A stretch of DNA of 11,024 bases from an uncultured Planctomycetia bacterium. GTDB lineage: Bacteria > Omnitrophota > Gorgyraeia > 2-02-FULL-51-18. Under the pieces are notes generated by a model. That model did not search any database and was not told the DNA's origin. It was given only the letters and a program-made list of their open reading frames with translations. Location of the stretch: contig CAZDBQ010000121.1 of NCBI GenBank assembly GCA_964503765.1, forward strand, positions 1 through 11,024, in the 5' to 3' direction. Positions within the stretch are counted from its first letter, which is position 1; every line of letters starts with the position of its first letter. Of the stretch, positions 2,237-3,487 are shown piece after piece. The translations under genes were made by a program, and so were the position numbers.

Positions 2237-2806
2237 TTGAACACAAAACAAAAGAAAACAAATCTTGTCTGGGTCGACCTTGAGATGACAGGGCTGGATC
2301 CCAAAAAATGCACCATTCTTGAAATTGGGGCTATTGTCACGGATGGGGAGCTCAATGTCATCGCCGAAGGGCCTTTTTTAGCGGTCCATCACAGCGAAAA
2401 GACACTGCGCTCGATGGAGGCGTGGAGCAAACACCACCATAAACTTTCCGGTCTCACCGACGCTTGCCGCGAGTCCAAGTTTTCCCTCAAGAAGGCCGAG
2501 GACGAGGTCCTTAAGTTCGTGAAAGAACACTGCAAGGAAAAGACGGCGCCTCTCTGCGGCAATACGATCTGGCAGGACAGGCGTTTTCTCATTAAATACA
2601 TGCCTCGTCTTGAATCCTACCTGCATTATCGCGTGATTGACGTGAGTTCCGTGAAGGAGCTTGTGGTGCGCTGGTATGGCAAGGACCACAAGGTGCCCCG
2701 CCTTAAAAAGCAGACGCATCGTGTTTGTGAGGATATTCGGGAGTCCATCGAAGAGCTTAAGCACTACCGCCAAAAAGTTTTCATTCCCCTGGGCAAGTCC
2801 AACTGA
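2237..2806 (+). CDS. orn: oligoribonuclease (DEDDh 3'-5' exonuclease)
   Basis: ...[46 protein letters not shown]...[17 protein letters not shown]...[12 protein letters not shown]... is collinear with E. coli Orn ([27 protein letters not shown]...CGNSIGQDRRFLFKYMP). The only start that retains the catalytic D-x-E motif is TTG at 2237; the nearest ATG, at 2285, would delete it. No SD is present; the leader is A-rich. Confidence 0.85.
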   Translation: [189 protein letters not shown]

Positions 2807-3070
2807 GCGTCCACCAAATAATGGATACGCTGGCTGAGCCAATTTTGGAACGAGACAAGGAAAGAGGAGGAGGAATAGTGTTAACTATGCCGACGACGAG
2901 TGACGCAGTCGCAGTCCAAAATAGGCCAGCCCCTTCGGGGAAGCCCCATCTTTGGTCGTCTGCTTCGTTGCTCCTCCTCGGCGGGCTTAAAAGCACACCT
3001 CGTCGTCGCGCCTTGCATACGACACAAATCTGGGGCTTCCAGCATATCCATTATTTGGTGGACGCTCAGT
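2802..3070. repeat. 269-bp element bounded by a perfect 26-bp terminal inverted repeat (ACTGAGCGTCCACCAAATAATGGATA at 2802-2827; exact reverse complement at 3045-3070); MITE-like insertion, invertible DNA segment or structured RNA
   Basis: The inverted repeat was verified base by base and is 26/26 perfect, with mismatches immediately outside (2801/3071) and inside (2828/3044). The 217-bp interior contains three further perfect complementary block pairs: 2864-2872/2971-2979, 2891-2900/2999-3008 and 2939-2948/3031-3040. The left repeat overlaps the orn stop codon (TGA 2804-2806). None of the ORFs in the interior looks like a protein. Confidence 0.6.
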
Positions 3071-3124
3071 AAAGTGTCCGTTTTTCCAGTTTCATCCCAA
3101 AAAATCCAAGAACTACGAATCAAG

Positions 3125-3487
3125 ATGGAGAAGTTAGGCCTTAAGGAGTCTGACTTTGAGGAAAACTTTATTCGCTCCGGGGGACCAGGGGGCCAGAATG
3201 TCAACAAGGTCTCTACCTGCGTTGTTTTAAGGCATGGGCCGACAGGCTTGGAAGTGCGCTGTCAGCGGGAACGTTCGCAGGCCCTCAATCGTTACCTTGC
3301 CAGGCGCCTTTTGGTCAGCAAACTCGAAGAGCGCGTTTTAGGGATCGCCTCAGAGCGGCGAATGGCCATCGAGAAGATACGCCGCCAGAAACGAAAACGT
3401 TCGAAGAGAGCCAAAGACAAGATGCTTCAAAATAAAAAGCATCAATCCCTTAAAAAGTCCCTGCGCGCCCGGCCGTCCGATTTTTAA
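3125..3487 (+). CDS. arfB: ArfB/ICT1-family peptidyl-tRNA hydrolase (RF-1 GGQ domain protein, alternative ribosome rescue factor B-like), compact variant
   Basis: The GGQ motif sits in ...DFEENFIRSGGPGGQNVNKVSTCVVLRH..., which aligns with E. coli ArfB (...[29 protein letters not shown]...). It is followed by ...RERSQALNR... (compare EYRSQELNRE) and a Lys/Arg-rich C-terminal tail (RRQKRKRSKRAKDK...), as in ArfB. The start is uncertain. ATG 3125 has no SD, while an in-frame GTG at 3074 is preceded by GGTGGA (3057-3062). The reading frame is open back to 2900 through the inverted-repeat element. Confidence 0.72.
   Translation: MEKLGLKESDFEENFIRSGGPGGQNVNKVSTCVVLRHGPTGLEVRCQRERSQALNRYLARRLLVSKLEERVLGIASERRMAIEKIRRQKRKRSKRAKDKMLQNKKHQSLKKSLRARPSDF

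Follow-up and report, generated by a model that had tools for sequence, protein, structure and literature searches.

The orn gene (oligoribonuclease) and an RF-1-domain (ArfB-like) gene stand side by side on contig CAZDBQ010000121.1, an 11,024-nucleotide (nt) stretch of DNA called the window here, and are held apart by a segment whose interior carries three perfect pairs of complementary blocks in the interleaved order A B C A' B' C'. What is this segment, a regulatory RNA belonging to the two genes or something that arrived between them? A preliminary description of the sequence took the region for the interior of an inverted-repeat element, which our comparisons support, and read the blocks as a pseudoknotted or switching RNA, which they mostly do not. 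On balance, the evidence favors one copy of a non-autonomous mobile repeat family of 270-330 bp, similar to the MITEs (miniature inverted-repeat transposable elements), whose members appear to relay translation across the gene junctions that they occupy. The family is apparently undescribed, and we found no earlier description of it in the literature.

An insertion at a gene junction and its repeat family

We found that window 2803-3069 is an insertion at the junction of the orn stop and the RF-1-gene start. The element and its flanks are as follows.

2803-3069, + strand: mobile element proper, CTGAG...CTCAG, 267 bp, delimited by nhmmer, by the family alignment, and by its absence in six relatives
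2801-2802: left flank, a degenerate TA (AA)
3070-3071: right flank, TA

In the six relatives (L003, L004, L005, L131, L132, and L133), which encode an Orn 80-98% identical to that of the window, the element is missing from the orn/RF-1 junction, and the orn stop is followed after 0-12 nt by the start of the RF-1 gene. The DNA of L003 is 91-94% identical to the window; the alignment ends at window 2799 and restarts at 3065. Its empty site (L003 1330-1345; window 2795-2807 and 3060-3076) reads AAGTC-TCAG-TAA-GTG, in which TCAG equals the right tip of the element and adds a Gln codon to orn. This TCAG may mark a secondary loss, as an excision or deletion footprint, or the target may have resembled the tip. 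Among the family loci, no empty site was found beyond the window/L003 pair. In the window, orn ends with TGA 2804-2806, the open reading frame (ORF) that runs through the element ends with TAA 3070-3072, and the RF-1 gene starts with GTG 3074, in a start context that is the same in the relatives.

The terminal inverted repeats match perfectly over 25 nt and at 85% over 46 nt, and all full-length copies have them. The 267-bp element carries no transposase gene, and its sole ORF, like the ORF products searched, has no Pfam match at E <=10. Using the 83-aa ORF as a protein query to catch spurious gene calls, we found 50 related ORF calls on other contigs; a profile of such calls, run against 1.84 billion representatives, gathers 59 clusters at 50% identity. 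At least 120 metagenome loci match a conserved 21-mer of the core. The nhmmer search gave 131 separate matches, 69 of them full length, and the family statistics below rest on the 59 unique ones among these, aligned with each other. Many copies are cut at contig ends, since repeats typically break assemblies, and some contigs hold two copies (e.g., L064). The copies sit between unrelated genes that are almost always co-directional, such as murF/mraY, an aminotransferase gene and tatD, or the 3' side of an adenine glycosylase gene. No copies were found in viral contigs, plasmids, or phages, and the exact terminal-repeat 19-mer gave only two single chance matches in the GTDB representative genomes. 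The named Orn homologues belong nearly all to 'Candidatus Omnitrophica', with one from 'Candidatus Eisenbacteria', and no entry identical to the Orn protein of the window was found; the host of the element is an Omnitrophota-like genome, and the family resides in Omnitrophota-type genomes.

Full-length copies read N-TA/CTGAG ... CTCAG/TA-N, most of them with TA on both sides. When the target sites are reconstructed in silico with one TA per site, the upstream ORF reaches the TA in 36 copies, and in 16 of these the TA occupies codon positions 1-2. The single TA plus the next base then forms the upstream gene's own TAA or TAG in 15 of the 16 phase-0 copies. Typical rebuilt junctions are TAATG or TAA-N-ATG, and a long co-directional ORF begins within 13 nt of the right end in 41 of the 59 copies. 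The TA flanks are consistent with a MITE mobilized by an IS630/Tc1-mariner transposase. The long terminal repeats and the TA at either end led us to reject IS200/IS605-type insertion. Self-splicing of the group I intron or IStron kind was rejected as well, on the avoidance of coding sequence, the varying termini, and the lack of an Rfam intron match.

A nested cloverleaf

RNAalifold on the 59-copy alignment indicates that the family keeps a nested cloverleaf, composed of a terminal stem (P1) and two domains, I and II, which are closed by P2 and P3, respectively, and have a central hairpin between them. In the window copy its parts lie as follows.

2802-2831, + strand: left arm of P1 (terminal inverted repeat), holding the orn stop TGA 2804-2806, TAA 2819-2821, and ATG 2821-2823
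2832-2851, + strand: 5' strand of P2, closing domain I, with its partner at 2914-2931
2863-2875, + strand: block A and the purine tract, resembling a Shine-Dalgarno (SD) sequence, in an unpaired junction of domain I; nearly invariant
2872-2891, + strand: hairpin H1 of domain I, with ATG 2887 in its 3' arm; 6 pairs, 4 compensatory
2891-2900, + strand: block B, CGACGACGAG, junction of domain I; no covariation
2900-2912, + strand: hairpin H2 of domain I (GYGAC-GCA-GTCGC); one-sided changes only (U-G to C-G)
2914-2931, + strand: 3' strand of P2
2930-2940, + strand: central hairpin CCCC-TTCG-GGG at the dyad center, sharing 2 nt with the end of P2 and 2 nt with that of P3
2939-2963, + strand: 5' strand of P3, block C and its extension, closing domain II
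2971-2979, + strand: block A', CTCCTCCTC, junction of domain II
2980-2998, + strand: hairpin H3 of domain II, imperfect in this copy; 4 pairs, 3 compensatory
2999-3008, + strand: block B', CTCGTCGTCG, junction of domain II
3015-3040, + strand: 3' strand of P3, including block C' (3031-3040)
3041-3070, + strand: right arm of P1 (terminal inverted repeat)

Compensatory changes occur in 24 of the 28 pairs of P1 (95.6% of cells paired), 7 of the 17 pairs of P2 (98%), and 12 of the 23 pairs of P3 (helices 4 and 5). Taken together, the internal helices comprise 55 pairs, of which 26 are changed on both sides, compared with 13.0 in shuffles, and none of 500 shuffles reaches 26; 93.3% of their cells are paired, and the covariation score is 0.168 as against at most 0.053 with slid partners. 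The small hairpin at 2930-2940, already pointed out in the preliminary description, is present with a stem that is conserved family-wide and a loop that varies; the stem grows to 7-10 bp in distant subfamilies (L041, L050, and L115), and the main subfamily has an AT-rich insertion there.

The element folds far more stably than its shuffles, with z = -8.9 and -10.4 for the two strands. When folded without constraints, the window copy has its energy minimum, -131.1 kcal/mol, in a rod that joins A to B' and B to A', and the cloverleaf has -128.0 kcal/mol; the rod-specific pairs are 88% pairable across the family and show zero covariation. The hidden Markov model (HMM) of the family also matches the reverse strand from end to end, with a score about a third as high as on the forward strand. 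The whole element is thus a degenerate palindrome in which domain II resembles the reverse complement of domain I, and the rod exists because of this symmetry.

Several copies carry smaller insertions of their own. An insertion of ~42 nt follows CGCGCCT, at the junction before the 3' strand of P3, in L096 and L044, and one of ~50 nt sits in the central hairpin of L023 and L116; these larger nested insertions occupy fixed points of the cloverleaf. In addition, a hairpin of 20-21 nt, CCTGCCTGCCGG(A)CAGGCAGG, is nested at different positions in two copies (L007 10040-10060 and L052 350-369), both times after AAG, and the frame of the element is kept because the hairpin is 21 nt long. The same hairpin also occurs near L007 14870, at L014 1541-1560 and L103 4944-4964, in L107 (minus strand), and in ORF call P0145, and looks like a separate, tiny mobile palindrome of the REP type. 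At L014 1515-1590, this hairpin lies between inverted TTGATTTAC...GTAAATCAA, which resemble the termini of the L123 subfamily, and the whole may be a much-reduced derivative of the element. Half-elements with one domain only (HMM ~13-156), uncut by a contig end, were seen at L086 1671-1802 and L068 2238-2356, and one half-element lies antisense between skp and lpxD. No transposase was found between the domains of the partial copies L086, L068, and L084, which have as neighbors lpxD, skp, and the genes of a GGDEF protein and of a pterin-binding enzyme.

An open frame through the element

The gene to the left of a copy lies sense to the ORF strand of the element in 46 cases and antisense in 3, and the gene to the right in 37 and 3. 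Since the TA target is palindromic, such a strong orientation bias is not expected from the target. The left arm holds stops in all three frames, so placed that the upstream frame ends at +1 (TAC TGA), at +12, or at +17/+32, depending on its phase. Behind them begins the frame that crosses the element.

2821-3072, + strand: through-ORF of 83 codons, from the left-arm ATG to TAA (right TA + A); hypothetical protein P0121 on the NCBI contig

Read from the ATG of AAATAATGG (element position +18), this frame is free of stops up to the element end in 46 of the 59 copies, as compared with averages of 2.0-4.2 stops in the other five frames and 3% of shuffled cores that are open. In 36 copies it stops precisely at the right TA, with A or G as the third base, and the core length is divisible by 3 in 44 of the 59. 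The preliminary description had recorded a frame from ATG 2887 and its end exactly at the right repeat. The latter is real and proves to be a family-wide property, and the 61 codons to TAA 3070-3072 are there; the ATG, however, is not conserved (ATA in L006, absent in the main subfamily), and the 61 codons are the tail of the 83-codon frame, whose start, ATG 2821 in the left terminal repeat, is the family-wide one.

Further comparisons indicate that the frame is kept open. Indels of +2, +11, and +2 set the window subfamily apart from the main one, so that conserved nucleotides are read in different frames, and yet no stop trinucleotide falls in either frame. The 287-nt class has 14 open copies out of 15, compared with 6.9 expected when the observed number of substitutions is placed at random; this per-class simulation replaced a test on pooled stop-creating variants, because pooling mixes reading frames. 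Among 12 distant subfamilies with unrelated termini, 8 are open to the right end, and two stop exactly at TAA. The peptide sequence shows no sign of selection: unique variants are distributed as 97/100/90 over the three codon positions, and 25% of them are synonymous, compared with 27% expected. Another ORF, of 195 codons (2900-3487, + strand), begins within the element, continues into the RF-1 gene, and arises from the small number of stop codons in the element; this ORF and the 83-codon P0121 are annotation traps.

From these frame and junction statistics, the through-ORF probably relays translation to the downstream gene. In the proposed sequence of events, the element would insert at a TA, often that of an upstream TAA or TAG in a tight, TAATG-type junction, presumably mobilized in trans by a TA-duplicating DDE transposase of the IS630/Tc1-mariner type. 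A ribosome leaving the upstream gene would then enter the left arm and open P1, the upstream frame would end there 1-35 nt into the element in whichever of the three phases it arrives, and translation would restart at the nearby left-arm ATG (TAATG). Ribosomes would traverse the element in a frame that selection keeps open without amino-acid conservation, melting the structure as they go, and would terminate at the regenerated TA(A/G), which has the original position relative to the next start and where reinitiation would be possible. Translational coupling would thereby be preserved, and the translated stretch would avoid polarity. Such a relay accounts for the orientation bias, the geometry of starts and stops, and a frame kept with a meaningless peptide.

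SD-like motifs are found in 25 of the 59 right arms and 21 of the 59 left flanks, compared with a 17% background, and may help in some subfamilies. SD bridging across P1, or a right-arm SD, was rejected as the general mechanism, at those counts and because bridging would not depend on orientation. The purine tract at 2863-2875, described earlier as a strong SD for ATG 2887, is present and nearly invariant, but its spacing to that ATG is not conserved. On the minus strand, a terminator-like hairpin (2945-2928) followed by TATTTT does not rise above the shuffle expectation; it could add to the selection against antisense insertions.

A number of observations weigh against this reading. The statistics behind the probable relay come from the sequences of related copies, which are not independent; no more than 10 of the 18 distinct length classes are divisible by 3; 13 of the 59 copies have a stop in the frame or lack the ATG; and the pooled stop-creating variants, in the test that mixes frames, show no depletion (11 observed, 12.6 expected). 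G-U and A-C mismatches are symmetric in the stems (43 and 40 in P1), so the stems show no sign of selection in the sense RNA over DNA and may be maintained as DNA. The relay also leaves unexplained that the sequences of the unpaired junctions hardly vary. As for mobility, no autonomous partner or transposase with matching ends was found in the 786 kb of loci examined, the left TA of the window copy is degenerate (CAA; AA at 2801-2802), and the L003 empty site (GTC-TCAG-TAA) is not a clean single TA. Finally, distant subfamilies share the core and differ wholly in their termini (CTGAG, CAGGC, GGGTC, TTGAC, GTGTT, and others), a combination that is the reverse of an ordinary MITE.

The mismatch symmetry, the undepleted stop variants, and the 13 broken frames, together with the dyad symmetry of the whole element, are what a plain selfish MITE would show, with its frame and stems inherited from a master copy or shaped by DNA-level processes such as palindrome homogenization and the needs of transposition, and with its orientation bias coming from the insertion mechanism, for instance through coupling to replication. 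We regard this explanation as unlikely. The target TA is palindromic and yet the orientation is 46:3, a bias that would be expected to exceed the ordinary preference of genes for the leading strand. Furthermore, the ORF stays open across subfamilies that use different frames or have unrelated termini, the 287-nt class is open well beyond the simulated number, and the stop falls exactly at the right TA in more than half of the copies.

Interleaved blocks, other readings, and known repeats

The three perfect block pairs of the preliminary description were all confirmed: A (GAGGAGGAG, 2864-2872) with A' (CTCCTCCTC, 2971-2979), B (CGACGACGAG, 2891-2900) with B' (CTCGTCGTCG, 2999-3008), and C (GGAAGCCCCA, 2939-2948) with C' (TGGGGCTTCC, 3031-3040), the last extending to 16 nt at 88%. 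Chance complementarity, which had been called more likely for trinucleotide repeats than for random sequence, does not explain them: 2828-3044, the part within the terminal repeat, holds 3 perfect inverted pairs of at least 9 nt, compared with 0.08 expected from dinucleotide-preserving shuffles, and none of 1000 shuffles reaches that number. A fourth strong pairing, of 2832-2851 with 2914-2931, had been missed and covaries across the family together with C/C', which is thereby a genuine helix with compensatory changes in the alignment.

The other two pairs behave differently. A:A', B:B', B:A', and A:B' are each 77-86% pairable, with zero pairs, or one cell, changed on both sides. The perfect matches of 9 and 10 bp are confined to the window subfamily, and the main subfamily has 6-7 bp; one-sided changes occur in L007, L061, L093, and L114; and in L115 the two CT blocks are swapped, so that the nested partners match perfectly. 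Duplex energies are equal for cognate and non-cognate partners (-17.7 vs -17.2 and -13.7 vs -13.3 kcal/mol). Because the whole element is a degenerate palindrome, GA-rich A and B in domain I face CT-rich A' and B' in domain II, and since A resembles B and A' resembles B', they match in both the interleaved and the nested combinations. Dyad symmetry and the similarity of the blocks thus explain the A B C A' B' C' pattern without a pseudoknot, and A/A' and B/B' are best explained as invariant GAN/CTN triplet blocks with ambiguous partners, left from the dyad symmetry; an invariant tertiary contact between them may exist, but nothing in the alignment speaks for it.

It is therefore quite unlikely that the element is a cis-regulatory RNA that controls translation, with A:A' and B:B' as tertiary or alternative helices and with the SD-like tract masked by CUCCUCCUC. 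The blocks of the window copy are perfect and non-random, they are nearly invariant and single-stranded in the covariation-supported fold, thus free to interact, and the mutually exclusive rod and cloverleaf are near-isoenergetic, so that part of the earlier switch proposal stands; distant subfamilies even shift the block register by three, with an A:A' of 8-11 bp in L050 and L063 (11 bp in L063). Against it stand the missing covariation of A/A' and B/B', the equally good A:B' and B:A' pairs with their equal energies, the swapped blocks of L115, the one-sided changes, the shorter matches of the main subfamily, and the unconserved ATG 2887. Moreover, a mobile insertion between unrelated genes is not a gene-specific sensor. 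Like riboswitches, attenuators, and other Rfam RNAs, the element is strongly structured with covarying helices; unlike riboswitches and attenuators, it is mobile with unrelated neighbors and lies between a stop and a start instead of in a 5' leader, and no covariation is seen in the helices that were proposed to switch. A riboswitch or attenuator is thus not supported. Rfam gave nothing relevant at the gathering thresholds, window 2700-3200 has no match at E <=10, and a main-subfamily copy gave only two chance snoRNA matches.

It is more doubtful still that the cloverleaf core is what a recombinase or an HUH-type enzyme recognizes, as folded single-stranded DNA or as RNA, in place of a transposase that would read the terminal repeats. 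A core conserved amid completely different termini, the compensatory upkeep of P1, P2, and P3, mismatch symmetry that fits DNA, and the missing transposase partner would all agree with recognition by structure. Nevertheless, the TA on both sides and the restoration of stops from a single TA fit TA duplication, no candidate enzyme gene adjoins any copy, and recognition by itself leaves the ORF and the orientation bias unexplained. Least probable of all is a real small protein gene of 83-89 aa on a mobile cassette, because, although most copies have an ORF of similar length that gene callers annotate and every subfamily uses one and the same frame for the N-terminal ~18 residues, the same nucleotides are elsewhere read in different frames (RRRALH/SSSRLA/VVAPCI; TTSDAVAV/RVTQSQ), variation is flat across codon positions with a synonymous fraction at the neutral expectation, conservation is at the nucleotide level including third positions, and Pfam gives no match at the threshold above.

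To return to the translational relay, we tentatively suggest, at somewhat less than even chances, that the selected unit is the cloverleaf core itself and not the termini, as a mobile translational relay cassette that is adapted to landing in the stop codon of a gene within an operon and in which the GA/CT blocks have a further role. These invariant, unpaired blocks might, for instance, bind ribosomes or a protein, or serve to recognize the folded strand in mobilization.

The genes around the element in the window are as follows.

125-607: smpB
627-1007: transfer-messenger RNA (tmRNA), Rfam 156.9 bits, tag peptide AKNTIQVPFAAPMAFRLAA
between tmRNA and orn: an ACT-domain gene, then a band-7 gene
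2237-2806, + strand: orn (oligoribonuclease), the upstream gene, whose TGA stop is now supplied by the element
3074-3487, + strand: RF-1-domain (ArfB-like) gene, the downstream gene, with its GTG start 1 nt past the through-ORF TAA 3070-3072
beyond the RF-1-domain gene: a TPR gene (minus strand), then PEPCK

Three ribosome-rescue components, smpB, tmRNA, and the ArfB-like RF-1-domain gene, are packed here into 3.4 kb. The order ACT, band-7, orn, RF-1, TPR, and PEPCK recurs in L004 and L132, and partly, without band-7, in L005.

Previous studies describe several small repeats with which the element can be compared. Correia/NEMIS of Neisseria and RUP of S. pneumoniae, the latter with a link to IS630-Spn1, are TA-ended MITEs (Delihas reviews PMC2229807 and PMC3184786). 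Like them, the element is small, non-autonomous, and dispersed, has terminal inverted repeats and TA ends, and would be co-transcribed with its neighbors and form long stem-loops, and in anatomy such TA-flanked bacterial MITEs, including RUP with IS630-Spn1, would be its closest analogues. However, Correia/NEMIS and RUP are simple hairpins of 100-155 bp in families defined by their terminal repeats, whereas the present family has 270-330 bp, a conserved cloverleaf core with variable termini, a sense bias, and an end-to-end frame.

In the case of the MIRUs of Mycobacterium, the review PMC3184786, citing Supply et al. 1997, gives an account of intergenic repeats in polycistronic operons, in which the ends of small ORFs overlap the adjacent genes. 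The element likewise has a small ORF inside an operon, in the orientation of the flanking genes and with its ends at their stop and start codons. Supply and co-workers reportedly found the MIRU ORFs oriented like the flanking genes and are said to have proposed translational coupling. MIRUs are mycobacterial units of 40-100 bp, often in tandem, without long terminal repeats or a cloverleaf, and have no sequence similarity to the element, which stands alone as a 267-bp unit, has long terminal repeats, and belongs to an Omnitrophota-like host. They appear to be the closest functional precedent for the relay ORF, by analogy only, and membership is not claimed.

ERIC/IRU and YPAL/RU-2, in enterobacteria and Yersinia, are palindromic repeats of 127-168 bp that are co-transcribed, have contiguous ORFs, and are known from empty and filled sites (PMC2229807 and PMC3184786). 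The palindromic structure, the contiguous ORFs, and the empty and filled sites are shared with the present element, but the ERIC and YPAL ORFs are described mainly as in-frame fusions to chromosomal ORFs, with no reported stop-restart-stop geometry, and the repeats form a single stem-loop. The Rickettsia palindromic elements (RPE) are mobile, too, and their open frame makes the insertion tolerable to the host (PMC2229807 and PMC3184786). They enter coding sequences in frame and are incorporated into the protein, whereas the present element has stops in three frames and lies at gene junctions. From all these repeats the family differs in its size, its cloverleaf core, its conserved core with variable termini, and its layout of three-phase stop, restart, and stop at TA.

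In practical terms, the family breaks metagenome assemblies, gives rise to ~59 clusters (at 50% identity) of a 'hypothetical protein' that is spurious, and leads to wrong start calls for downstream genes, such as the 195-codon ORF 2900-3487 that runs into the RF-1 gene. In addition, a conserved core combined with a terminal helix that is free to covary reverses the usual rule for MITEs and raises the question of what recognizes the element. If the relay is true, a transposable element would have settled on the few non-coding bases within the tight operons of a phylum with small genomes, and would have done so by restoring the very coupling of translation that its insertion breaks, an adaptation at the level of translation and not of transcription or splicing.

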